A stretch of 64,000 bases of DNA from Bacteroidales bacterium (GTDB taxonomy: Bacteria > Bacteroidota > Bacteroidia > Bacteroidales > UBA4417): NCBI GenBank assembly GCA_038212135.1, contig JBBQUX010000001.1:13734-77733 (forward strand), read 5' to 3'. Below are positions 49,768-62,435 of this stretch, one piece after another. The position numbers and the translations under genes were made by a program. A model generated the notes under the pieces. The model did not search any database. It was not told the DNA's origin and worked only from the letters and a program-made list of their open reading frames with translations. Every line of letters starts with the position of its first letter. Position 1 is the stretch's first letter.

Positions 49768-50811
49768 TTATGGCATAACAGGAACCACTTTGGCATCAGC
49801 CGGAACTTCACCTGTCAGTGCTTTCATGAATGCTGTTATTTCACTTGTTTGTTCAGGTGTTAATTCCTTATTTAATTGTCCTTTGGCCATTATCTGAATA
49901 GTTTTGTCCATTTCTTTTATACTTCCATCGTGCAGGTATGGCCAGGTTTCGGCTATGTTGCGCAACGAAGGCACTTTAAAGAAGTATTTGTCAGCTTCAG
50001 TTTTAGTTGCAGCCATTTTCCCAAAATCATCTACGGTGCTCCCTGTGAGCTCTTTATGAGTTCCAAATAAGGGGTATTTCTGGAACATGTTTCCACCTAA
50101 CAACGGACCCATATGACATGCCGTGCAGCCTGTTTCTATAAAGGCTTTGCAGCCTTTCAACTCCTGATCGTTAAGAACGCTAAGGTCGCCGCCAAGGAAT
50201 TTGTCGAATTTACTGGGTGTAAGCAATGTGCGTTCAAAAGCAGCAATGGAATTTCTCATGTTTGTGAACGAAACGGGCTGTTTGTCATCCGGGAAGGCGG
50301 CTTCGAACATTTTCTTATACCCTTCATTTTTGGTCAGCCTTGCCATTACTTCTTTTTCATCGGGCATGCTCATTTCAACTGGATTCATAACAGGTCCGCC
50401 AGCCTGTTCTTCCACATCTTTCATCCTTCCATCCCAGAACTGCACGAAATGTAAAGCAGCATTTAGTACGGTTGGCGAATTTCTGCTTCCTAATTTCCCG
50501 TTATCGCCCGGGCTGGTCGGTTTGTTATCAACGCCAAACGTAGCCAGATTGTGACAAGTGTTACAGCTTTCAGTATTGTTTAATGAAAGCCTGTTGTCGT
50601 AATACAAAGTTTTACCAAGCAACACTTTTTCGGTAGTTACTGCATTGCCAGGATTAACGGCTTCGTCAGGTAAAGGCTGAAACAGGTTTTTAGCCAGCAT
50701 AAGCACTGAGTCAGCATTGAGCCCTGAAACCTGATCTTTGCTCTGTTTGTTGTTACATGCAAATGTGAGAACCACAATTGCGGTAATGACCGGAATAAAT
50801 AGATTTTTCAT
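49768..50811 (-). CDS. ccpA: di-heme cytochrome c peroxidase (CCP/MauG family)
   Basis: Start at MKNLFIPV (signal/lipobox-like TFAC). CNTCHNL and CTACHMG heme motifs, FWDGR, and VPSLRNIAETWPYLHDGS, characteristic of bacterial CCP. Confidence 0.9.
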   Translation of the reverse strand: MKNLFIPVITAIVVLTFACNNKQSKDQVSGLNADSVLMLAKNLFQPLPDEAVNPGNAVTTEKVLLGKTLYYDNRLSLNNTESCNTCHNLATFGVDNKPTSPGDNGKLGSRNSPTVLNAALHFVQFWDGRMKDVEEQAGGPVMNPVEMSMPDEKEVMARLTKNEGYKKMFEAAFPDDKQPVSFTNMRNSIAAFERTLLTPSKFDKFLGGDLSVLNDQELKGCKAFIETGCTACHMGPLLGGNMFQKYPLFGTHKELTGSTVDDFGKMAATKTEADKYFFKVPSLRNIAETWPYLHDGSIKEMDKTIQIMAKGQLNKELTPEQTSEITAFMKALTGEVPADAKVVPVMP

Positions 50812-50885
50812 GATGATTTTTAATTGGTTTAAATTAAGTGATATTATTATTTTTTTGAATTGGATATGACAGTTTATCAAAGTTA

Positions 50886-51608
50886 TTAATCATCGTCTTC
50901 ATCCTTCTCTTTACTATTTATCTGGTTTTTCTGTTCCGGATTTTCTGCTTCAGGAGAGATTTTTTGAGTAGTAATTGAGTATGGGACTATTGCCAAAGCA
51001 GCCAGTATGCCTGTCGCAGCAACAATTTTCTGAAATGAATTCAGCTTGATACCTTCTGCATCAATGTTTTTGTAGCCCGTAAAAATAGATAATAATGTTC
51101 CCGCTTTTTTGTTAAAAATAAAATCAACAATGTTACCGAGCAAATGCGCAATCACAAGCCCGATAAGGATATTCACAGCAATCTCGTGGATTTCTTTTAG
51201 TGAATCTTCTGACAAACCGGTTTGAACGAAAGCAAACAGACCTTGTCCTTCCGATGCCAGCAATAAAATTCCTGATACAACGATTATCAGGCTGAAAATT
51301 ATGATCCCCAACATTACGACCGATGCCGCAGGATTATGACCAGGTGACTGACTCTTACTTTCCTTCATATTGGCAGCAAATTTTTTGAGAGAATTCACCC
51401 CGATAGGGAAATCGCTGAACCTTGAGTATTTTGGGCCGACAAAGCCCCATATTATCCTGAAAATGATCAGTATCCCAACCATATATCCAACGGATGAATG
51501 AAAATTCAGCAATTCTTCTTCGCCTGATAAAATGTAAGCGGCAACCATTCCGATTACCAGAAGCCAATGGAAAATCCGTGTTGGCAAACTCCAGATGTAT
51601 GTTTTCAT
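50886..51608 (-). CDS. cytochrome b561 / Ni-Fe-hydrogenase b-type cytochrome family membrane protein
   Basis: 240 aa. PTRIFHWLLVIGMVAAY, SVGYMVGILIIFRIIWGF and HEIAVNILIGLVIAHLLG provide the conserved His pairs in 4 TM helices. Acidic C-terminal tail. Confidence 0.8.
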   Translation of the reverse strand: MKTYIWSLPTRIFHWLLVIGMVAAYILSGEEELLNFHSSVGYMVGILIIFRIIWGFVGPKYSRFSDFPIGVNSLKKFAANMKESKSQSPGHNPAASVVMLGIIIFSLIIVVSGILLLASEGQGLFAFVQTGLSEDSLKEIHEIAVNILIGLVIAHLLGNIVDFIFNKKAGTLLSIFTGYKNIDAEGIKLNSFQKIVAATGILAALAIVPYSITTQKISPEAENPEQKNQINSKEKDEDDD

Positions 51609-51653
51609 AGTTTTTAGAATTAAAGTTTGAGTGTTAATTTTTGATTATATGTT

Positions 51654-52514
51654 TTATTCTTTCCCGGATGGTTCATAATGAATGTGAACCTCACAGCGTT
51701 CAATCCGGCCGCAAATTATTTTTTCGACCTTGTGCGAAATGGCGTGAGCCTCGCTTATGTTCAATTCCGGATCAACATGTATGGTTATATTTACAAATGT
51801 GTCGGCTCCGGCTACCCTTACTTTTAAATCGTGGTAATAACTCACTTCAGGAATGAGTTGAATCATGGAGGAAATTTCATCGCTGAGTGTAAGCGGGCTG
51901 CGGTCGAGAAGTACATCTATCGCTTTTTTACCAAGCCTGTATGATACTGTGAGAACGATTAATGCTACTCCAAGAGCGGCAACCGAATCGGCTGCAAAAA
52001 GGCCGAAATTCGCACAAATCAATCCGATCAGAACAACTACTGAACTCCATATATCAGTGGAAAAATGAAGCGCATCAGCCTCCAGTGCCTGGCTATTGTA
52101 CTTTCGCGCTACTTTATATAAAGCTCTCGAACGTGACACATCAACAATGATTGAAGATATGACTACAATATAACTCCAGATTGTTACTTCAATGTGGATA
52201 TTGCCTGTTAACAAACGGTTTACAGCTTCGTTTACGATCCATACACAGGTAATGATAAGCAATATTGTTTCAAGAAGAGCTGAGAAATTTTCGGTTTTTC
52301 CATGACCAAAGTGATGATGCTTATCAGCCGGCTTGTCAGAAACTCTAACTGTAAAATATGTGATTACAGCAGCAACAAGGTCCAGAGCCGAATGTAGTGC
52401 TTCCGATAAGATACCGAGACTTCCGGTGAGTAAACCGACTATGAGTTTAAACCCGGTTAAAAAGATGGCCGCAAATACTGATATTCCGGCTACTCTCTTT
52501 TTCTCTTTTTCCAT
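51654..52514 (-). CDS. cation diffusion facilitator (CDF) family metal efflux transporter
   Basis: 286 aa. SEALHSALDLVA (TM2) and ALHFSTDIWSS (TM5) CDF motifs, plus a C-terminal cytoplasmic domain. Confidence 0.88.
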   Translation of the reverse strand: MEKEKKRVAGISVFAAIFLTGFKLIVGLLTGSLGILSEALHSALDLVAAVITYFTVRVSDKPADKHHHFGHGKTENFSALLETILLIITCVWIVNEAVNRLLTGNIHIEVTIWSYIVVISSIIVDVSRSRALYKVARKYNSQALEADALHFSTDIWSSVVVLIGLICANFGLFAADSVAALGVALIVLTVSYRLGKKAIDVLLDRSPLTLSDEISSMIQLIPEVSYYHDLKVRVAGADTFVNITIHVDPELNISEAHAISHKVEKIICGRIERCEVHIHYEPSGKE

Positions 52515-52632
52515 GAAAAAGGTAATAATAATGTTACTTCTAACGTGCTGCTTGTTATTGCTTACACCAGAATTGTCAGTATAACCAGGGAAATAAAGCT
52601 GGAAAGAGACAACTGGAGTAAAACGGAATTTA

Positions 52633-52932
52633 TTAGCAGGATTGTTTGGGTGGTTGCCAGATGGAAGAGAGGAAATAGCTGAATTCAGGCTGAGCTTTCA
52701 TAAATAAATGCAGGTGGTTAGAAAGGTCAGAGCCAGAAAATATAATAGAACTCTTCTGGAAAAAATGATCGCCAAACGAAATAGTATGGTGATGCGGTCC
52801 GTCAGTATTGCCGGTATGAAAAGGGATATGTGTTGTGTTAATATTTGCATACAAAGAAATACTTTCATCCACACTCATCAGCAGAGCGATCATAACAGCT
52901 AAAACAGCAGCTATATATCTTAATTTCTTCAT
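52633..52932 (-). CDS. small secreted/anchored His-rich hypothetical protein
   Basis: Start at MKKLRYIAAVLAVMIALLM (signal or anchor). His-rich mature part (THIPFHTGNTDGPHHHTISFGDH..NHLHL). First ORF of the reverse-strand CDF/cyt b/CCP gene string. Coding status is not certain. Confidence 0.45.
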   Translation of the reverse strand: MKKLRYIAAVLAVMIALLMSVDESISLYANINTTHIPFHTGNTDGPHHHTISFGDHFFQKSSIIFSGSDLSNHLHLFMKAQPEFSYFLSSIWQPPKQSC

Positions 52933-53216
52933 ATCAGCAGCAAAAATACAAAAACAATCTGGTTTGATCATTCTCCCAACTTTATTCAAAGTCGCAAGCT
53001 TTGGATGAGTGAGCCTGAAAATTGCAATATAGTTATACATATTTACGTTCTTAAATACGTGAATAGGTTTAATGTTTTCTGATGATTAAGTTTGAATCTA
53101 AAGCATTGCTAAATAGTTGATTAAATAAAATTATGATTAAAGCAGCAAGCGACCGATTTCTACAAATCTAGTATCCCTTTTATGGTTTTCCTGCTGCTCT
53201 ATGTGCAAAAAAATAA

Positions 53217-53335: not shown

Positions 53336-54205
53336 ATGAATAAAGCAGTTCACAGAATTTACCTGGCAGGATTATCACTTATAGTATTAATTGCATTTGC
53401 TGCAATTACATTAAAAGGATACCAATATTATAAAATCAGTCTCGAAGAACGTTTTTTTCATCCGGATCATACCATCCTTAAACCAAGTGGTTTTTGGGGT
53501 CATGGAATGGGAATAGTTGGCTCCATTTTTATGATCCTTGGTGTAACCCTGTATATGGCCCGTAAGAGGTACAGAGTATTCTCGCGGTTGGGCTTTTTAA
53601 AACACTGGCTCGAATTTCATATTTTTTTGTGTACGTTGGGTCCTATCCTTGTACTTTTTCATACCGCCTTTAAATTCGGTGGCATAGTTGCAATCAGTTT
53701 CTGGAGCATGGTAGCTGTTTTCCTGAGTGGAATTATCGGAAGGTTTATCTATATTCAGATTCCGCGAACAATCGAAGGACGCGAATTAAGTCTTTCTGAA
53801 GTTAGAGGTATGAAAGGTGATATCGGTAACACATTAAGCCATTCGATTCAATTGGATGAAGGAAGCCGGAATGTAATTGCGGATTCAATAAAGGTAAAAC
53901 CAGAACTTTATCATAGTAATTTCTTTGTACGCACTTTTAGGAAATATGTTGACGACAGAAAGTCACTTGGTAGTGTAAAGACTGTTTTGAAAAAAAATAA
54001 TCTTTCCAAATCGCAACGGATTGAAGTGTTGAACCTTGTAGAAAATGAAATTTCACTCAACAGGAGGATTGAACGGCTTGTATTAATGCAGAATTTATTT
54101 AAATACTGGCACGTGGCACATTTGCCATTTGCCCTGGTGATGCTTGTAATTATGGTAATACATGTTGCAGTTACCATTGTATTTGGTTATAAATGGATAT
54201 TCTAG
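53336..54205 (+). CDS. polytopic membrane protein with paired conserved-looking His residues (unknown family)
   Basis: 289 aa. Four N-terminal TM helices ([23 protein letters not shown]), a soluble loop of about 110 aa, and a final TM segment [23 protein letters not shown]. First gene of the operon. Confidence 0.75.
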
Positions 54206-55542
54206 TTATGGATGAGATGCTTTTAGAGAAGGTGGTTATTTATTCCCTGGTAATTCTGTTTTGCCTGGTTATTGTATTTATTTATTTGCGCAAGCAGAAA
54301 CGGGAATCGAAAAAAGTGGAGGAAAAAATTGTTATTGCAAAACGGGATGGAATGTACGAGCCTGTATCGTTGCACCCGGTAATTGACGAAGGCAGTTGTA
54401 TACGAACTGGTGCATGCATTGCTGCCTGTCCGGAAAAGGATATTCTGGGTATAAAAGATGGTAAAGCAACAACGATAAATGCTTCTAAATGTATCGGACA
54501 TGGGGCTTGTTTCCATGCCTGTCCAACAGAAGCTATAACACTGGTAATAGGTACCGAAAAGCGTGGCGTTGAACTGCCTCATATTAATCAGAACTTCGAA
54601 ACCAATGTTGACGGAATTTATATTGCAGGTGAGTTAGGAGGAATGGGTCTGATAAAAAATGCCGTTGAACAGGGCAGGCAAGCCGTCGAAAATCTGGCAA
54701 AAACCCTTCGCAAAGCGCACCAGGCAACTTACGACCTCGTAATTATAGGTGCTGGTCCTGCAGGAATTTCTGCTTCGCTCACTGCAAAAAAACATAACCT
54801 CAACTTTCTGACTCTTGAACAGGATACCCTGGGAGGAACTGTTTTTACTTTCCCCAGGCAAAAAATTGTAATGACTTCAGCCATGGATCTCCCTCTGTAT
54901 GGCAAAGTGAAATTATTCGAAACCAGTAAACCGGCACTACTTGATTTATGGAATTCAGCACTTACAAAGAATGGCATTAGTATTCAAGAAAACACAAAAG
55001 TAGAATCGATAACAGCCGAAAACGGGCATTTTAATATCGAAACACTTACGGGACAGCATATTACAGCAAAAACCGTTTTGCTGGCCATCGGGCGAAGAGG
55101 TACGCCGCGTAAACTTGGTGTTGAAGGAGAAATGCAGGAAAAAGTAGCTTACCGGCTCCTGGAACCGGAAGATATAAGCGGGAAAAACATTATGGTTGTT
55201 GGCGGAGGTGATTCGGCCATTGAGTCCGCTTTGCTGCTGGCTGATCATAATAATGTTACTCTTTCCTACCGCAGTGAAGCTTTTAACCGAATAAAGCAGA
55301 AAAATAGCGAAAAGATAAAAGATGCCATAATTTCGGGCAAGGTGAAAGTGCTTTTCAACACAAATCCGGTTCGCATTAACAAGGATTCAGTTGTGCTTAC
55401 AACCAGCATGGAAGAGGAGGAACTTTATATTGAAAATGACCTGGTTTATATTTTTGCCGGCGGTGAACTCCCGATTCAATTCCTGGAAAAGGCTGGTATC
55501 CATATCACTAAAAAGTTCGGGGAAGCAATAATGAAACATTGA
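54193..55542 (+). CDS. membrane-anchored 2x[4Fe-4S] ferredoxin-domain / FAD-NAD(P)-binding (thioredoxin-reductase-like) oxidoreductase
   Basis: N-terminal TM segment ([19 protein letters not shown]). Cluster motifs [12 protein letters not shown] and [12 protein letters not shown]. Dinucleotide folds [13 protein letters not shown] and [13 protein letters not shown]. Its start overlaps the upstream gene by 13 nt. Confidence 0.85.
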
Positions 55543-55568: not shown

Positions 55569-57170
55569 ATGACATTCAGAATTAAACATATTGTAAGTTT
55601 ATTTGCACTGGCAGCTTTTCTCTGCTTTTCAGCAAAAGCTCAGATATCGCCGGGTGAACTTGCCAAAGTGCATTCGCATCTCGAAGGCATTTCGAACTGC
55701 ACAAAATGTCATACGCTGGGCGATAAGGTATCTAATGACAAATGCCTGGCCTGCCATACCGAAATAAAAACCCGCATTGATCAAAAAAGAGGCTACCACT
55801 CATCCCCACAGGTTAAAGGCAAACAATGCGCCAGCTGCCATAATGATCACCATGGGCTGACTTTTCAGATCATACGATTCGACAAGGATAAATTTATTCA
55901 CGATCTGGCAGGATACAAGTTAACTGGTGCTCACAGCAGGAAAAAATGTGAGGATTGTCACAAGGCTGCTTTTATTTCCGATGTAAAAATCAAAGCAAAA
56001 AAGTTTACTTACCTCGGGCTAAAAACTGAATGTCTGGCCTGTCACGCTGATTATCACCAAAAAACACTTTCGACTAATTGCGCCGAATGCCACACGGATG
56101 AAAAGTTTAAGCCGGCATCAAAATTCGATCATAACAAGTCTAAATTTAAATTGGCAGGTAAGCACCAGGATATTGCCTGCGCCGAATGCCACAAGACTTC
56201 GGTAAGGAATGGACAGAAATTCCAGGAATTCAAAGGGGTAAAAGCCACCAACTGTACTAACTGCCACAAAGATGTTCATGACAATAAGTTTGGGCAGAAT
56301 TGTGCTGAATGTCATAATAATGAGTCGTTTACTGTTGTAGGAGGCGTGAAGAATTTCGATCACAGCAAGGCTGATTTTAAACTGGAAGGCAAACATGTGA
56401 ATGTAGCCTGTAAAAAATGTCATAAAGTAAAACTAACAACACCTTTATTCTTTAAACGCTGCACCGAATGTCACACTGATTATCATGGCAAAGAATTCGC
56501 GAAAAACGGCGTTTCTCCCGATTGTTCTGCCTGCCACAATGAGAAGGGTTTTACTGAATTTTCATATACCATCGAGCAGCACAACGCCGGTGTTTTCCCA
56601 TTAAAAGGAGCTCATGTTGCAACTCCATGTTTCGCATGTCACAAAAAAGAGGAGAAATGGAAATTTAAAGAAATAGGTAAAAACTGCAAAGATTGCCACC
56701 TCGACATTCACAATACATTTATCAGCAGCAAGTATTATCCTGAAGCAAATTGTGAATCATGCCACAATCTGAACCGCTGGAGTGCAGTGGAGTTTGACCA
56801 TAAAAAAACACAGTTTGAACTTGAAGGTGCTCATACGAAGCAAACCTGCCGCGATTGTCATTTCAATAAAGAAAAGACGGGACACGCAAATCAAAAATTT
56901 TCAGGATTAGCTACCAACTGCACCAATTGTCATACAGATGTGCATTTCAAACAGTTTGAAGACAATGGAGTCACGGATTGTAAAAAATGCCATAATTCCG
57001 ATTCATTTAAACCCGCTTCAAAATTCGATCACGGCAAAGCGCGATTTTTGCTGGATGGAAAACACGTGAATGTGGCTTGCATAAAGTGCCACAAAGAAGT
57101 AACAGAACAAGGCGTAACTTTTGTATTGTACAAAACAAATAAAACGAAATGCGAAGACTGTCATCTATAA
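55569..57170 (+). CDS. 20-heme c-type cytochrome (cytochrome c3/c7-like, doubled-CXXCH architecture)
   Basis: Signal peptide (..CFSAKAQ). 20 CXXCH motifs in 533 aa, counted by hand. Six copies of the F(D/I)Hx(K)xxFxLxG(K/A)Hx4-5CxxCH module. Confidence 0.9.
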   Translation: MTFRIKHIVSLFALAAFLCFSAKAQISPGELAKVHSHLEGISNCTKCHTLGDKVSNDKCLACHTEIKTRIDQKRGYHSSPQVKGKQCASCHNDHHGLTFQIIRFDKDKFIHDLAGYKLTGAHSRKKCEDCHKAAFISDVKIKAKKFTYLGLKTECLACHADYHQKTLSTNCAECHTDEKFKPASKFDHNKSKFKLAGKHQDIACAECHKTSVRNGQKFQEFKGVKATNCTNCHKDVHDNKFGQNCAECHNNESFTVVGGVKNFDHSKADFKLEGKHVNVACKKCHKVKLTTPLFFKRCTECHTDYHGKEFAKNGVSPDCSACHNEKGFTEFSYTIEQHNAGVFPLKGAHVATPCFACHKKEEKWKFKEIGKNCKDCHLDIHNTFISSKYYPEANCESCHNLNRWSAVEFDHKKTQFELEGAHTKQTCRDCHFNKEKTGHANQKFSGLATNCTNCHTDVHFKQFEDNGVTDCKKCHNSDSFKPASKFDHGKARFLLDGKHVNVACIKCHKEVTEQGVTFVLYKTNKTKCEDCHL

Positions 57171-60010
57171 TCCTGTCGTTGGTACTTTCATTAAGTCTGG
57201 TGGCCCAGAAATCGCCTCATGGTGATACTTTCAAAGCCAATTGCGACGATTGCCATAAAACCGATGGCTGGAAGGTTGATTTTAAAACAGTTTCCTTTGA
57301 TCATAATGGAACAAAATTCCCTCTTGTTGGTCAGCACCAGGCTGTGAATTGTAAGCAATGCCATACTTCACCCGAATTTGCCAAAGCACAAACGGAATGC
57401 AATTCGTGCCATACAGATATTCACGAACAAACGGTTGGTAATGAATGTGCCAGGTGTCATACTCCAAATTCCTGGATGGTAACTAATATAACCCAACTTC
57501 ATCAACAGAGCCGTTTCCCGCTTATTGGCCCTCATACGGTTGCTGATTGCCGGGATTGTCATAAAAATCTTTTATCGGCTACAACTCCGGCATCCCCATC
57601 AGCTTCACTTCTCCGGTTCGATCCTTTAGGTGTCGAATGTTATGATTGTCATAAAGAGGATTATACTACTGCAAAAGAACCTGATCATGTAGCAGGAGAT
57701 TATCCGACAAACTGTATCGAATGTCATACTATTAATTCATTTGAATGGAAAGGAGCAGGCATCAACCATAATTTCTTTCCGCTTGAGGGAGGGCATAACA
57801 ATATTGATTGTAAAAAATGTCATACTTCCGGAACCTATGCAACTATACCTGCTGAGTGTAATTCCTGTCACCAGCCTGATTATACGTCAACTCAAAATCC
57901 CAATCATACTTCACTCAATTTTTCGAATGACTGCAGCAAATGTCATTCCCTAAATCCCGGTTGGAAACCAGCGGAATATTTAGACCATGATGCGCAGTCA
58001 TTTCCAATATATTCGGGAAAACACAAAGGAGAATGGGAAAATTGTTCCGATTGCCATACAAATCCGTCAAATTATGCTCAGTTCACATGTACTGATTGCC
58101 ACGAGCATAACAAAGGTGATACGGACGAACAACATGGAGATGTTAGTGGTTACGAATACAACAGCATGGCCTGCTTTGCCTGTCACCCGACAGGCGATAG
58201 AGAAGGAAGTTTCGATCATAATAAATCAAGCTTCCCCTTAACCGGGGCTCACACCACAACGGCTTGTGCCGATTGTCATACAACGGGATACGCAGGCACT
58301 CCGAACGTGTGTGCAAGCTGCCACATAAATAATTATAATCAATCTACTAATCCAAATCACAAAGCACCCGGCAGTAAGTTTACCGAGGATTGTGCCGCCT
58401 GCCATACTACCAACACCGGATGGAAACCTGCTACTTACCCTGTGCATTCGAACCTTGAGGGAGCTCACGTTCCTATCGCCAACGATTGTGCAGCCTGCCA
58501 TAACGGAAGTTATACAACCTTGCCCTCAACTTGCTACGATTGCCACACTACAGATTATACGCAATCAAATAATCCTTCTCATGCTAGTGCTCAGTTCCCG
58601 ACAACCTGCGCTGATTGCCACACTCAGGCAGCATGGAAACCCGCAACTTTCAATCATGATGGTCAGTACTTCCCAATTTATTCAGGGAAACATAACGGGG
58701 AATGGGATAATTGTTCTGATTGTCATACAAATCCAGCGGATTATAAAGTTTATACCTGTACTTCTGCCTGTCACCTGAAACCAAAAATGGATAGTGAACA
58801 TCAGGGCGTTGGTGGTTATCTATACAACAGCCCCTCCTGCCTGGGATGCCATCCGGATGGAACAGCACAAGGTTTTGACCATAATGCTGCCGGGTTCCCT
58901 TTAACCGGCGGGCATGCGACAGTATTATGCATAAATTGTCATACCAGTGGATATGCCGGAACCTCGCCTGTTTGTGCGGGCTGTCATACTCCTGCTTTTA
59001 ACCAATCTGTTAATCCAAATCATACTTCGCTTGGAATACCTACCGATTGTGCAGCCTGTCATACAACCAATCCGGGCTGGAGTCCGGCAACTTTTGCAAC
59101 GCACAACAATTATTATGTTATTGCCGGTGCTCATGTGCCTATTGCAAATGAATGTGCCACCTGCCATAATGGAAATTATATTAATTCGCCTAATACTTGC
59201 TTTGGTTGTCATGCTTCATCCTACAACCAGACCACTAATCCAAATCATGCTGCAGCGCAATATGCTACTACCTGTGAAGATTGTCACACGCAAAGTGCCT
59301 GGTCGCCATCAACTTTTAACCATAATACCACATATCCGCTAACAGGAGCACATTCAGCAATCGCCAGTAATTGTTCGCAGTGTCATCCGAACGGATATTC
59401 CAATACTCCTAATACATGTGCAGGATGCCACCAAAACAATTATAACCAGGCAACGAATCCGAATCATATTTCTCTTGGAGTGTCCAACGATTGTGCTGTT
59501 TGCCATACAACAAACCCTGGCTGGCAACCTGCTGCCTTTCCGGTTCATAACAATTACTATGTTTTAGCCGGGGCTCACGTATCTGCTGATTGTGCCGATT
59601 GCCACAATGGTAATTATAACACCACACCCAATACATGTGCAGGGTGCCATATGAATGACTATAACCAGACTAATGATCCGAACCATGCTTCGGCACAGTT
59701 CCCGACAAGTTGTGAAGATTGTCATACGCAGACTGCATGGCAACCTTCAACTTTCAATCATGACGGACAATATTTCCCGATTTATTCAGGTAAACATAAT
59801 GGTGTGTGGAATACCTGTTCGGATTGCCATCCTAACTCAGCAAACTATGCAGTATATACCTGCACTACCTCGTGCCATCCGCAGAATTCCACTAACAATG
59901 CGCATAACGGGGTAAGTGGGTACCAGTATCTGAGTAGTGCCTGCCTGAATTGTCACCCTAATGGAAATGGGGATAAGAAGATCTTTATTAATGATATAAG
60001 GAATAATTAA
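57149..60010 (+). CDS. giant multiheme c-type cytochrome (35 x CXXCH plus 2 x CX3CH in 953 aa)
   Basis: Signal peptide MRRLSSIILSLVLSLSLVAQ. Heme motifs counted by hand. Three-fold repeated module (..FPIYSGKH.G.W..CSDCH.N...Y...TCT..CH......H.GV.GY.Y.S..C..CHP.G). Eight copies of CxxCH-x3-[YF]-x5-P-x-H. The start overlaps the 20-heme gene by 22 nt. Confidence 0.9.
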   Translation: MRRLSSIILSLVLSLSLVAQKSPHGDTFKANCDDCHKTDGWKVDFKTVSFDHNGTKFPLVGQHQAVNCKQCHTSPEFAKAQTECNSCHTDIHEQTVGNECARCHTPNSWMVTNITQLHQQSRFPLIGPHTVADCRDCHKNLLSATTPASPSASLLRFDPLGVECYDCHKEDYTTAKEPDHVAGDYPTNCIECHTINSFEWKGAGINHNFFPLEGGHNNIDCKKCHTSGTYATIPAECNSCHQPDYTSTQNPNHTSLNFSNDCSKCHSLNPGWKPAEYLDHDAQSFPIYSGKHKGEWENCSDCHTNPSNYAQFTCTDCHEHNKGDTDEQHGDVSGYEYNSMACFACHPTGDREGSFDHNKSSFPLTGAHTTTACADCHTTGYAGTPNVCASCHINNYNQSTNPNHKAPGSKFTEDCAACHTTNTGWKPATYPVHSNLEGAHVPIANDCAACHNGSYTTLPSTCYDCHTTDYTQSNNPSHASAQFPTTCADCHTQAAWKPATFNHDGQYFPIYSGKHNGEWDNCSDCHTNPADYKVYTCTSACHLKPKMDSEHQGVGGYLYNSPSCLGCHPDGTAQGFDHNAAGFPLTGGHATVLCINCHTSGYAGTSPVCAGCHTPAFNQSVNPNHTSLGIPTDCAACHTTNPGWSPATFATHNNYYVIAGAHVPIANECATCHNGNYINSPNTCFGCHASSYNQTTNPNHAAAQYATTCEDCHTQSAWSPSTFNHNTTYPLTGAHSAIASNCSQCHPNGYSNTPNTCAGCHQNNYNQATNPNHISLGVSNDCAVCHTTNPGWQPAAFPVHNNYYVLAGAHVSADCADCHNGNYNTTPNTCAGCHMNDYNQTNDPNHASAQFPTSCEDCHTQTAWQPSTFNHDGQYFPIYSGKHNGVWNTCSDCHPNSANYAVYTCTTSCHPQNSTNNAHNGVSGYQYLSSACLNCHPNGNGDKKIFINDIRNN

Positions 60011-60020
60011 AGTCTTGATT

Positions 60021-61643
60021 ATGAAACTTATACTTCCTGTATTTTTATTATTGTTAGTTGGTTCTGGCCTGAAAGGACAAACAACCGGCGGAACTAAAGA
60101 AGGGACTGTATCGTATATCACTTCGCTGAGTGTTTATGTGAAATTTGAAACAACTGAAAGTATCTCAGTAGGGGATACCCTGTTTACTTTTAAGGATTCA
60201 AAAATGGTTCCTGCCCTCATAGTAAAGGAACTGTCTTCTATTTCATGCGTTTGTACCCCATTGGTATCAATAAAATTATCATTGAATGATAAAATACAAT
60301 CCCGGCCAAAAATTATAAAACCTGTCGAAAATCAGAATGTTGTGGTTGTGCCTGTCGTGAAGCCAGTGGAGGTGATAACAGATACAGTGGCGTCAAAAAA
60401 AGTAACTCCTGCTGAACCAAAGCAAAGTATCAGCGGACGAATTTCAGTTTCTTCGTATTCGAATTTTTCGAATGTCTCGGATTTTTCCCAACGCATGAGA
60501 TACACTTTTTCGATGAATGCGCAAAATATCAGTGATTCGAAGTTCTCGGCCGAAACTTACATTTCATTTGTGCACAAAATGAACGAATGGAGCGAAGTAC
60601 AGGAAGATATTTTCAATGGATTAAAGATTTACAGCCTGTCGGTCAATTATGCTTTTAACAAGAATAACACTATCTGGTTTGGCCGGAAGATAAATCCACG
60701 TCTTTCGAATGTTGGAGCAATTGACGGGCTTCAGTACGAAACCAAATTCAAATCCTTTACAGCTGGAGCCTTTTTCGGGTCAAGGCCTGATTATATGAAC
60801 TATAGTTTTAATGCCAGTTTGTTGCAATACGGCGGATATTTTAGCCACGATTATTTGAATAAAAAGGGTGGAAGTGCGCAAACTTCTTTGGCTTTTGTTG
60901 AGCAAAAAAATAACGGCAATACCGACCGGAGATTTGCTTATTTACATCATTCCAATTCGCTGCTGCCTAAGCTTTATTTCTTCGGATCTATCGAATTTGA
61001 CCTTTACAACAAAGTACTGAATTCACAGGATAGTTCTTACACCCGGGACTATACGCCCAATCTTTCGAACATATATTTTTCGCTCCGGTACAAAGTGATT
61101 AAGCAATTATCAATATCTGTATCATACAGTGAAAGGCAGAATATCATTTATTATGAAACCTACAAAAGCATCGTTGATCAGTTGCTCGAAGAAGCCACAA
61201 TGAGGGGTTTCATGTTCCAGGTAAACTACCGCCCGATAAAAAACATGACTATCGGTGCAAATGCCGGCTACCGTGTTAGCAAAAAAGATCCTGGGCCATC
61301 AAAAAACCTATATACTTACCTCACATACAGCAATGTGCCCTGGATTAATGCTTCCGCAACTATTTCGGCCACCTTGTTGCAAACAAGCTATCTTTCGGGA
61401 AACATATATAGTTTCGGCCTTTCACGTGACCTGGTGCCGGGCAAGTTATACGGCGGAGTTAGTTACAGACACGTAAACTATAAATTCCAGAGCGCAGAGA
61501 CTCCCTTAATTCAGAATATGGGTGAGATGAACCTGACCTGGCGAATTATGAAGAAACTTTCGCTTTCAGCTAATTATGAAGGCACCTTTGAAAAGGGAAG
61601 AAACTACGATCGTATCTATATTAATCTTACGCAACGTTTCTAA
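60021..61643 (+). CDS. predicted outer-membrane beta-barrel protein (unknown family)
   Basis: Signal peptide MKLILPVFLLLLVGSGLKGQ. N-terminal soluble domain of about 130 aa, then a long alternating hydrophobic/aromatic strand pattern with frequent Y/F/G/N/S. The terminal residue is Phe (...YINLTQRF), the classic OMP C-terminal signature. Starts 10 nt after the giant cytochrome gene. Confidence 0.65.
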   Translation: MKLILPVFLLLLVGSGLKGQTTGGTKEGTVSYITSLSVYVKFETTESISVGDTLFTFKDSKMVPALIVKELSSISCVCTPLVSIKLSLNDKIQSRPKIIKPVENQNVVVVPVVKPVEVITDTVASKKVTPAEPKQSISGRISVSSYSNFSNVSDFSQRMRYTFSMNAQNISDSKFSAETYISFVHKMNEWSEVQEDIFNGLKIYSLSVNYAFNKNNTIWFGRKINPRLSNVGAIDGLQYETKFKSFTAGAFFGSRPDYMNYSFNASLLQYGGYFSHDYLNKKGGSAQTSLAFVEQKNNGNTDRRFAYLHHSNSLLPKLYFFGSIEFDLYNKVLNSQDSSYTRDYTPNLSNIYFSLRYKVIKQLSISVSYSERQNIIYYETYKSIVDQLLEEATMRGFMFQVNYRPIKNMTIGANAGYRVSKKDPGPSKNLYTYLTYSNVPWINASATISATLLQTSYLSGNIYSFGLSRDLVPGKLYGGVSYRHVNYKFQSAETPLIQNMGEMNLTWRIMKKLSLSANYEGTFEKGRNYDRIYINLTQRF

Positions 61644-61700: not shown

Positions 61701-62435
61701 ATGAAACCCAAAACAGTGGTCATTGCCATTGCTATTATGGTAGGTGTAATCCTGATAGCAGTTCCTTTTATCAACAGTAAGAAGGATAGAAAGGCTCTTG
61801 ATTTGCCTCCGGGTACTCATGAAGTAACCATTGCAGAAGTGATTCAAACTAATAAATATACCTATTTTCTTGTAGAAGAAAACGACAGTGAATACTGGAT
61901 TGCTGTAACCAAACGCGAAGCTAGCAAAGGTGATGTGATTTATTATTCCAATCCGTTGGAAATGAATAATTTCGTGAGTAAAGAGTTGGGCCGCACATTC
62001 CCCACCATATTCTTTGTGCAGGATGTAAGTGAAAAGCCATTTCCTGATGAAAATACTGCATCGCCGCAGATGGCACAAAAGAAACCGGAAATCGTAAAAA
62101 TGGATAATGTAAAAATAGATCCGGTTAAGGGAGGTATATCCATTTCAGACTTGTACGATGGGCAGGCTAAATATGCTGGTAAAACAGTTATTATTCGCGG
62201 GGTCGTTGTGCGGTATAACCATATGGTAATGGGGAAAAACTGGGTACATATTCAGGATGGTACTGAATCCTCCGGTCAGTTCGATCTTGCAATTACAACG
62301 AAGGACAGCCTTGCCGTAGGGAATACAGTTACTTTCACCGGAGCAATCAGCCTTAACAAAGATTTTGGCTCAGGATATTTCTATAAGGTAATTATGGAGG
62401 ATGCGAAAGCTTCTGATATAATTTCAATTGAATAA
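61701..62435 (+). CDS. membrane-anchored hypothetical protein with two similar halves (possible OB-fold-like domains)
   Basis: N-terminal TM segment (VVIAIAIMVGVILIAVPF). Two segments share a layout (..TIAEVIQTNKYTYFLVEENDSEYWIAV..KGDVI vs ..SISDLYDGQAKYAGKTVIIRGVVV..NWVHIQDGT...AITT...VGNTVTFTG). Last gene of the operon. Confidence 0.7.
   Translation: MKPKTVVIAIAIMVGVILIAVPFINSKKDRKALDLPPGTHEVTIAEVIQTNKYTYFLVEENDSEYWIAVTKREASKGDVIYYSNPLEMNNFVSKELGRTFPTIFFVQDVSEKPFPDENTASPQMAQKKPEIVKMDNVKIDPVKGGISISDLYDGQAKYAGKTVIIRGVVVRYNHMVMGKNWVHIQDGTESSGQFDLAITTKDSLAVGNTVTFTGAISLNKDFGSGYFYKVIMEDAKASDIISIE

Follow-up and report, generated by a model that had tools for sequence, protein, structure and literature searches.

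This analysis concerns two overlapping genes in a stretch of DNA of 64,000 nucleotides (nt), referred to below as the window, from Bacteroidales bacterium (UBA4417) (assembly GCA_038212135.1, contig JBBQUX010000001.1, positions 13,734 to 77,733 of the forward strand). The first gene (53336-54205, + strand) codes for a membrane protein of 289 amino acids (aa), called here IMP, and the second (54193-55542, + strand) for a membrane-anchored Fe-S flavoprotein of 449 aa. Both genes share 13 nt (54193-54205) and head a run of six genes of the + strand, with overlaps or short gaps between them. They are followed by the genes of a cytochrome c with a signal peptide, 20 CxxCH motifs and Cytochrome_C7/c3 domains (55569-57170, + strand), of a larger cytochrome c of 953 aa with 35 CxxCH motifs (57149-60010, + strand), and of a predicted outer-membrane barrel of 542 aa (60015-61643, + strand). 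There are no CxxCH motifs in either IMP or the flavoprotein. The reading favoured here, which we hold to be somewhat more probable than not, is that the pair works as a two-component electron exporter, similar to the NADPH oxidases (NOX) and to the MsrQ-Fre system, that would take electrons from NAD(P)H to periplasmic haems and so feed the cytochrome/porin conduit encoded downstream.

The fold of IMP was studied with an AlphaFold2 model built on 75 diverse homologues (pLDDT 92.5, pTM 0.82), which replaced a single-sequence model with pLDDT 63. The model contains helices at residues 3-33, 53-78, 88-109 and 116-140, and a long helix at 225-282, the C-terminal part of which (about 255-282) makes the fifth membrane span, for a total of five transmembrane (TM) helices. 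The C-terminus is 7 residues past TM5. Between TM4 and TM5 there is a helical insert of about 110 aa (residues 141-250; 53756-54085, + strand), modelled as helices 153-170, 175-185 and 196-220 plus the start of 225-282. Two histidine pairs, both with H-x13-H spacing, are located on TM3 (H95/H109; 53618-53662, + strand) and on TM5 (H262/H276; 54119-54163, + strand). Considering the 75 homologues, H95 is conserved in 74 of them, and H109, H262 and H276 in all. The histidines are part of the motifs W91-x3-H95-x13-H109 and W258-x3-H262-x13-H276, and TM4 contributes S131-G-x-x-G135-R136; residues W91, W258, S131, G132, G135 and R136 are nearly invariant. The five TM helices, the His pairs and the loop of about 110 aa, which a first-pass annotation of the window had pointed out, were therefore confirmed by the translation, the model and the homologues.

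A membrane protein of this kind is already in the literature. In 2017 He, Barco, Emerson and Roden described the conserved inner membrane protein, or IMP, of the porin-cytochrome c gene clusters PCC3 and PCC4. It has five helices, with a WX3HX13H motif on each of TM3 and TM5 and an SGxxG motif on TM4, and these authors interpreted it as a b-type protein with two haems, similar to the ferric-reductase domain and to cytochrome b (PMC5566968). Judged by the published motifs and description, the 289-aa protein fits as a member of that family. The resemblance includes a size of about 300 aa, the five helices, the SGxxG motif and both WX3HX13H motifs, and it extends to the cluster, as in both cases IMP is encoded with a periplasmic cytochrome of 20-odd haems, a larger second cytochrome and a barrel. 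So, neither the membrane protein nor the type of cluster is new, and the two b haems had already been predicted (PMC5566968). The difference is that the published cluster consists of four genes, with IMP exchanging electrons with quinones, whereas here the anchored Fe-S flavoprotein is a constant fifth component. In the literature found, the coverage of which is incomplete, there was no paper describing the flavoprotein partner or an NAD(P)H-fed reading.

The IMP family is large: at E ≤ 1e-3 it comprised 2716 representative clusters, of which 205 remained at E ≤ 1e-30. Because of this size, and because the gene pair is kept across phyla, what was observed in the window is not due to chance. 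Among the 75 relatives, sub-threshold Pfam matches were obtained to DUF4405 in 54 (best E 1.6e-5), to Ferric_reduct PF01794 in 35 (best E 2.8e-5) and to Ni_hydr_CYTB in 20, all three being families of haem-b membrane proteins. The five helices, the two WX3HX13H motifs with their four near-invariant histidines and these weak matches to haem-b families are the reasons to consider IMP as probably a membrane protein with two b haems. A related observation was made in many small genomes of one family (f22; for example G134:C6:98137-98496), where open reading frames (ORFs) of about 190-200 aa match only IMP residues 53-147 (TM2-TM4), with E from 1e-4 to 1e-6; they are possibly a truncated relative of the IMP superfamily.

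Concerning the flavoprotein, four parts can be distinguished: an N-terminal hydrophobic helix, a ferredoxin-like domain, a linker, and a two-Rossmann FAD/NAD(P)H body. The helix is a membrane anchor at residues 13-32 (54229-54288, + strand), with an acidic N-terminus outside and the stretch RKQKRESKK inside. The ferredoxin-like domain (residues 61-117; 54373-54543, + strand), matched by the Pfam models Fer4_10 (61-111) and Fer4_21, contains motif I, C69-x2-T72-x2-C75-x3-C79-P, and motif II, C100-x2-H103-x2-C106-x3-C110-P. In an alignment of 134 homologues taken from fetched loci, the six motif cysteines and His103 are invariant, while position 72 varies, with 72 sequences having Thr, 51 Cys and 11 Ser. 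The canonical CxxCxxCxxxCP pattern, with eight cysteines, is absent, as the second Cys is replaced by Thr72 in motif I and by His103 in motif II, and the Fer4 profiles still match. The loss of the second motif Cys marks [3Fe-4S] or alternatively ligated clusters, and His(Cys)3 clusters are often placed at the electron exit point of proteins. With these two replacements, the name "di-cluster ferredoxin" given in the first-pass annotation is no more than a loose label. Its other remarks on this gene, namely the 13-nt overlap, one TM helix, two CxxxGxCxxxCP motifs and two Rossmann motifs, were found to be correct.

The FAD/NAD(P)H body (residues 180-442; 54730-55518, + strand) is matched by Pyr_redox_3 at 183-440 with E 1.6e-40 and is free of cysteines. 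Its Rossmann motifs GAGPAG (186-191) and GGGDSA (337-342), together with Y359-R360, R366 and K368, are invariant among the 134 homologues, and in our own reading the Arg-rich site past the second Rossmann strand would fit NADPH. The best curated relative is YpdA/Bdr (TIGR04018), with a score of 153.1 bits that is below the cut-off of 339.9, and the score against thioredoxin reductase (TrxR; TIGR01292), whose redox CxxC is missing, is 83.6 bits versus a cut-off of 343. The nearest solved relatives are YpdA/Bdr structures 7a76 and 7a7b (E 5e-22 and 2e-20) and the TrxR-type ferredoxin-NADP reductases 3ab1 and 6gar. These two groups are the best sequence relatives of residues 180-445, with which they share a fold of two Rossmann domains for FAD and NAD(P)H that lacks the CxxC of TrxR. 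The flavoprotein differs from YpdA/Bdr in being far below the family cut-off, in its Cys-free flavin body, and in the added anchor and ferredoxin-like domain. Since C110 is the last Cys and there is none after it, the flavoprotein cannot be a disulfide reductase, and this candidate function was ruled out. Bodies related to flavoprotein residues 127-442, with 33-39% identity, were also seen in proteins of about 780-1060 aa from several genomes of the phylum (G177:C44, G165:C91, G265:C47, G169:C121 and others), which have a different, larger architecture.

The membrane topology of both proteins was deduced from charge bias (positive-inside rule). In the 75 IMP homologues, the median K+R count amounts to 2 for the N-terminus (8 residues) and to 5 for the loop between TM2 and TM3 (13 residues, RKR), and the insert between TM4 and TM5 contains a median of 20 K+R versus 13 D+E, a net charge of +7. 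On the other side, loop 1 is approximately neutral (28 residues, median K+R 3 versus D+E 2), and loop 3 has a K+R of 1 and the C-terminus of 0. IMP is predicted from this pattern to be N-in with the insert in the cytoplasm, so that each His pair would have one member close to the cytoplasmic face (H95, H262) and the other close to the periplasmic face (H109, H276). In the case of the flavoprotein, the N-terminal hydrophobic helix is present in 133 of the 134 homologues, and the charge after the anchor is more positive than before it in all of them (medians +4 versus -2). This bias points to an N-out/C-in orientation that would put the Fe-S and flavin domains in the cytoplasm, as their cofactors require. 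The predicted geometry would be adequate for an electron hand-off at the cytoplasmic face, with the IMP insert and the cytoplasm-side His pair facing the flavoprotein, and the insert is a candidate docking surface for the latter. Topology was the main weakness recognized by the first-pass annotation, because the flavoprotein would normally be cytoplasmic while the cytochromes are periplasmic; this is largely answered by the charge data, with a placement that is a predicted one.

The co-occurrence of the two proteins was evaluated by searching the same 301 genomes of the phylum with each of them, a full-length flavoprotein partner being a match with E ≤ 1e-90 that covered about residues 8-449. 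Full-length IMP homologues were found in 31 genomes and full-length partners in 30, all 30 among the 31. In the only genome with IMP alone (G177), the IMP gene is interrupted by a TAA stop codon (L034, G177:C5:99301-100173) and lacks both the partner and a surrounding cytochrome cluster, so that it is apparently a decayed remnant of the cluster.

The closest relatives in public genomes belong to Lentimicrobiaceae and other metagenome-assembled genomes (MAGs) of Bacteroidales, and gene linkage was studied in 80 Bacteroidales loci from public genomes, counting in each case those with room for the neighbour. The partner was directly after IMP in 75 of 75 loci, the 20-haem cytochrome was present in 69 of 69, and the barrel followed the cytochromes in 55 of 55. 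Among closer relatives the partner is right after IMP, sometimes with a small tetratricopeptide-repeat (TPR) protein between them. In more distant members of the phylum, it is found at the other end of the cluster, just behind the barrel gene, and it still adjoins the barrel gene in assemblies broken in the repetitive cytochrome genes. A third order was found by scanning metagenomes with a distant IMP (32% identical), which led to GC-rich contigs from soil and peat, probably of Acidobacteriota according to a lead that comes from a protein atlas only. The cluster of this soil clade begins with two cytochromes and goes on with the barrel, a protein of about 270 aa, IMP and the partner, with identities of 44-49% for the partner where full length and about 30% for IMP. 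The partner match starts at most about 150 nt from the IMP gene in all but one of the loci with downstream sequence, the exception (L192) being a partial partner alignment with a gap of 465 nt. As the linkage is kept through three gene orders and at IMP identities as low as about 30%, there is strong evidence, of a comparative nature, that IMP and the flavoprotein constitute a functional unit. It can also be said that among the loci examined there was no intact pair without cytochromes; a pair commonly found without them is what the first-pass annotation had proposed as a sign of unrelated function.

Two additional proteins were seen next to the pair in related clusters. One is the TPR protein, of about 200 aa, which comes after IMP in many of them (L035:9599-10213, L045:9986-10570, L058:10410-10988), is weakly similar to the TPR domain of CcmH/CycH, and is missing from the window. 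The other is the conserved protein of the soil clade, of about 270-285 aa, the gene of which is directly upstream of the IMP gene and overlaps it (L152:9183-10004, L154:9150-9992 and similar). In addition, a metagenome protein of 418 aa (P0199 / P0292) contains the first 171 residues of an IMP joined to the last third of the flavoprotein body, and it looks like an internal deletion chimera across the adjacent genes instead of a designed fusion.

The search was extended to plasmids by tblastn. A complete cluster of the window type was found on pEMTOL02, a 100-kb plasmid of the cultured Cytophagales strain Emticicia oligotrophica DSM 17448 (NC_018749.1, 78197-90781). The order of genes is ccsA, IMP, a "NAD(P)-binding domain-containing protein", two cytochromes of the c3 family, a hypothetical protein of 538 aa and a GW-domain protein, that is to say the order of the window with ccsA in front; the gene of the flavoprotein there is EMTOL_RS21095. 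This plasmid location hints at horizontal spread of the cluster.

Shorter IMP-like genes, coding for 240-252 aa, were found on plasmids of Alteromonas, Sphingobium, Legionella, Methylophaga and Acetobacter. The Alteromonas protein aligned with the IMP family profile by hhalign with a probability of 99.2% and E 5.7e-20, and it contains the same motifs, so by profile similarity it qualifies as a true IMP homologue. In five of five plasmid records, the IMP-like gene has on one side the gene of a "2Fe-2S iron-sulfur cluster-binding protein" and on the other a gene of about 250 codons, annotated as c-type cytochrome in three of the five and read here as a small cytochrome of c3 type. The three-gene cassette of the Alteromonas macleodii plasmid pAM1A3 is at L228:4974-8457, and others are in L229, L230, L231 and L232. 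The cassettes lie in regions with copper or heavy-metal resistance genes (multicopper oxidase, CopB, DUF411), and they may provide periplasmic reducing power for metal handling. In the Alteromonas 2Fe-2S protein, the N-terminus is signal-like and precedes a Met-rich stretch and a single membrane helix with KMRR after it; the domains FAD_binding_6, NAD_binding_1 and Fer2 come next. By its domain content, it is identified as an anchored NAD(P)H dehydrogenase with a fold unrelated to that of the window flavoprotein. Two unrelated, likewise anchored NAD(P)H/flavin/Fe-S enzymes are then found beside an IMP homologue and a periplasmic cytochrome c, which is what would be expected if the IMP family moves electrons from a cytoplasmic dehydrogenase to the periplasm. 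The co-occurrence, the linkage through three gene orders and the analogous cassette give strong comparative support to the proposal of the first-pass annotation that electrons are fed into the multihaem conduit at the inner membrane by this pair.

The presence of ccsA, a cytochrome c biogenesis gene, directly before the pair on the Emticicia plasmid, together with the occurrence between IMP and the next gene, in many related loci, of the TPR protein weakly like the CcmH/CycH domain, could suggest another role. The pair would supply periplasmic reductant for the attachment of roughly 55 haems to the two giant cytochromes, keeping haem iron or CxxCH reduced, and there would be no catabolic electron flow. 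This is very improbable in our opinion: no biogenesis gene adjoins the pair in the window, the proteobacterial cassette combines the IMP homologue with only a small c3 cytochrome in metal-resistance islands, and a stoichiometric task would hardly call for machinery as heavy as a dedicated NAD(P)H dehydrogenase that has two Fe-S sites plus two haems.

If the pair acts as an electron exporter, its mechanism can be proposed as follows. The 449-aa protein, anchored at the cytoplasmic face, would oxidize NAD(P)H at its FAD. The electrons would then pass through two Fe-S sites, one with a ligand set of the His(Cys)3 type and the other, in this clade, with three Cys and Thr, possibly a [3Fe-4S] cluster. 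The cytoplasm-side b haem of IMP (H95/H262) would accept them from the flavoprotein, and they would cross the membrane to the periplasm-side b haem (H109/H276). The latter would reduce the 20-haem cytochrome, which is probably the periplasmic acceptor of the module, and the larger cytochrome and the outer-membrane barrel would carry the electrons outward. Such a route would be fed by NAD(P)H without quinone and driven by the redox drop and the membrane potential. It is worth noting that outward flow through the di-haem protein would be favoured by the inside-negative membrane potential and would consume it, so the module would be an electron sink and not a coupling site. An electron-sink design would suit fermentative hosts. 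The Lentimicrobiaceae, according to the literature, ferment carbohydrates, and enrichment on conductive carbon was seen for a Lentimicrobium MAG that has a cluster of 61 plus 20 haems (PMC13013709).

In enzymology, the nearest tested precedent for NAD(P)H export would be, by analogy, E. coli MsrQ. As in the MsrQ-Fre system, here there would be a haem-b membrane protein without a dehydrogenase domain of its own, reduced by a separate cytoplasmic NAD(P)H flavoenzyme and delivering to a periplasmic redox acceptor (PMC12525009). The differences are several. MsrQ, a ferric-reductase-domain protein, has six helices, one haem and FMN, Fre is soluble, lacks Fe-S and is encoded elsewhere, and the acceptor is the molybdoenzyme MsrP. 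In the window pair, in contrast, IMP has five helices and four histidines as putative haem ligands, the partner is anchored, has Fe-S motifs and is encoded by an overlapping gene, and the acceptor would be a multihaem cytochrome c. It is also relevant that the haem potential of MsrQ, about -250 mV, excludes quinol donors (PMC12525009).

The NADPH oxidases and ferric reductases (PF01794) offer a second comparison. The logic would be the same, from NAD(P)H to flavin, to two stacked b haems on TM3 and TM5, and to the outside, and the two agree as well in the spacing of the histidines and in the order of the helices. On the other hand, two polypeptides are involved here, the dehydrogenase is a TrxR-type two-Rossmann protein and not of the FNR type, and there are added Fe-S sites. 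Also, PF01794 proteins have six helices, whereas IMP is without the sixth and has the cytoplasmic insert of 110 aa. As to CymA (of the NapC/NirT type), ImcH and CbcL, they are likewise inner-membrane entries to periplasmic multihaem cytochromes, but they are c-type multihaem or b/c quinol oxidases, unlike the window pair, which has an NAD(P)H-type flavoprotein and is devoid of CxxCH.

Several points have to be set against the interpretation of the pair as an NAD(P)H-fed exporter. No model of Pfam or NCBIfam was matched by the 289-aa IMP, with nothing in Pfam at E ≤ 0.01. Foldseek searches of its model against the Protein Data Bank (PDB) gave nothing meaningful (best E 0.35), and its family profile matched no PDB sequence. 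A wide search with VIA-align gave Z values of 9.9 for the designed di-haem bundle 7ah0, 8.2 for STEAP1 (6y9b_C, rmsd 6.2 over 156 residues), 7.8 for cytochrome b561 and 7.3 for FdnI, all of them within the helical-protein background, amid many unrelated bundles at like Z; of the di-haem proteins listed (7ah0, 6y9b, 4o6y, 1kqg_C), none was above background. The comparison with DUF families and ferric-reductase folds advised by the first-pass annotation thus gave sub-threshold DUF4405 and PF01794 matches for the relatives, no Pfam hit for the protein itself, and fold matches at background level. No fused IMP-flavoprotein proteins were found at longer lengths with IMP or alignment queries, which is weak evidence. 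It is by prediction that haem binding, a type of cluster and the oxidation of NAD(P)H are assigned to the pair, and electron export through a bare di-haem protein would dissipate the membrane potential instead of building it, something odd for a respiratory pathway. What the analysis establishes are the features of the sequences, the fold as predicted, the topology as deduced from charge, and the conservation of the gene linkage; from them we infer haem binding, cluster types, donor, direction of flow and physical contact of IMP with the flavoprotein, among which haem binding, donor identity and flow direction are the weakest links.

Concerning the donor, NAD(P)H is favoured over the quinone pool by context only. 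The PCC3 clusters of betaproteobacteria (Gallionellaceae) were described as four genes without flavoprotein, and therefore IMP may use another donor, for instance quinol, in line with its modelling by He et al. as a quinone-active cytochrome b (PMC5566968). IMP would in such a case be a quinol:cytochrome c oxidoreductase, and the flavoprotein either an NDH-2-like NAD(P)H:quinone reductase or a regulator, loading the local quinone pool and bypassing the IMP haems. The genome, which is 82% complete, encodes NuoH, so a quinone pool probably exists, and for MenA there was a below-threshold match only. Some IMP relatives give the weak matches to Ni_hydr_CYTB mentioned above, a quinone-reactive family, and NDH-2 enzymes are also membrane-associated two-Rossmann flavoproteins. 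NDH-2, however, has no Fe-S domain, whereas in the flavoprotein the ferredoxin-like domain and His103 are invariant. Moreover, two unrelated NAD(P)H/flavin/Fe-S reductases occur beside IMP homologues in different phyla, for which a direct hand-off is a simpler explanation, and in the MsrQ precedent quinols are too oxidizing to be the donor (PMC12525009). On balance, entry of electrons from quinol seems unlikely, and NAD(P)H remains our preferred source.

Concerning the direction, PCC3 was first found in Fe(II) oxidizers and was proposed to serve electron uptake (PMC5566968). Electrons of external origin, from Fe(II), reduced humics, a cathode or a partner cell, could then enter via the cytochromes and the di-haem protein and reduce cytoplasmic NAD(P)+. 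The TrxR-type ferredoxin-NADP reductases are reversible in principle. Inward flow would nevertheless be opposed by the inside-negative membrane potential, the reduction of NAD(P)+ from most extracellular donors would also be uphill, and no energy-coupling subunit is encoded in the cluster. Furthermore, PCC3 genes are down-regulated on Fe(II) in Sideroxydans ES-1, and the hosts considered here are Bacteroidales of the Lentimicrobiaceae type, described as fermenters. We regard this direction as distinctly improbable, and the export of electrons from NAD(P)H is kept as the working interpretation.

A wider proposal can be made in a tentative way, as we give it a little less credence than the reading of the window pair. 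The PCC3-type conduits of Bacteroidota and of the soil clade, which is probably of Acidobacteriota, would be fed by cytoplasmic NAD(P)H without quinones, and the same would apply to the proteobacterial plasmid cassette. An anchored flavin/Fe-S dehydrogenase plus a five-helix di-haem b protein would then define an unrecognized class of exporters, with the dehydrogenase recruited at least twice from unrelated folds. To our knowledge, every characterized extracellular electron-transfer pathway of Gram-negative bacteria begins at a quinol dehydrogenase. If the proposal is true, a route starting at NAD(P)H would represent a different design, in which no energy is conserved at the entry step, and minerals, humics, electrodes or partner cells could receive the surplus electrons of fermenters and other non-respiring organisms. 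The reading of PCC3 clusters would change as well for those present in metagenomes of soils, peat, lakes and digesters, the inner-membrane step of which is still an open box in the published models. As the whole cluster is on a plasmid of the cultured strain E. oligotrophica DSM 17448, the idea is testable, and both proteins are small enough to be co-expressed.

With respect to the other genes of the locus, the divergent genes of the - strand at 49768-53040 code for a protein of 135 aa, a CDF metal exporter, a cytochrome b561-type protein and a di-haem cytochrome c peroxidase. Kinship of the IMP family with the cytochrome b561 gene (50886-51608) was considered and discarded, as hhalign showed none. 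A scan for promoters and terminators gave counts at chance level. The last gene of the operon (61701-62435, + strand) codes for a protein of 244 aa with a weak match to the GW domain (PF13457, E 2.6e-4). A GW-domain protein is encoded at the same operon position on the Emticicia plasmid, and the 244-aa protein is probably a conserved sixth component of the operon.

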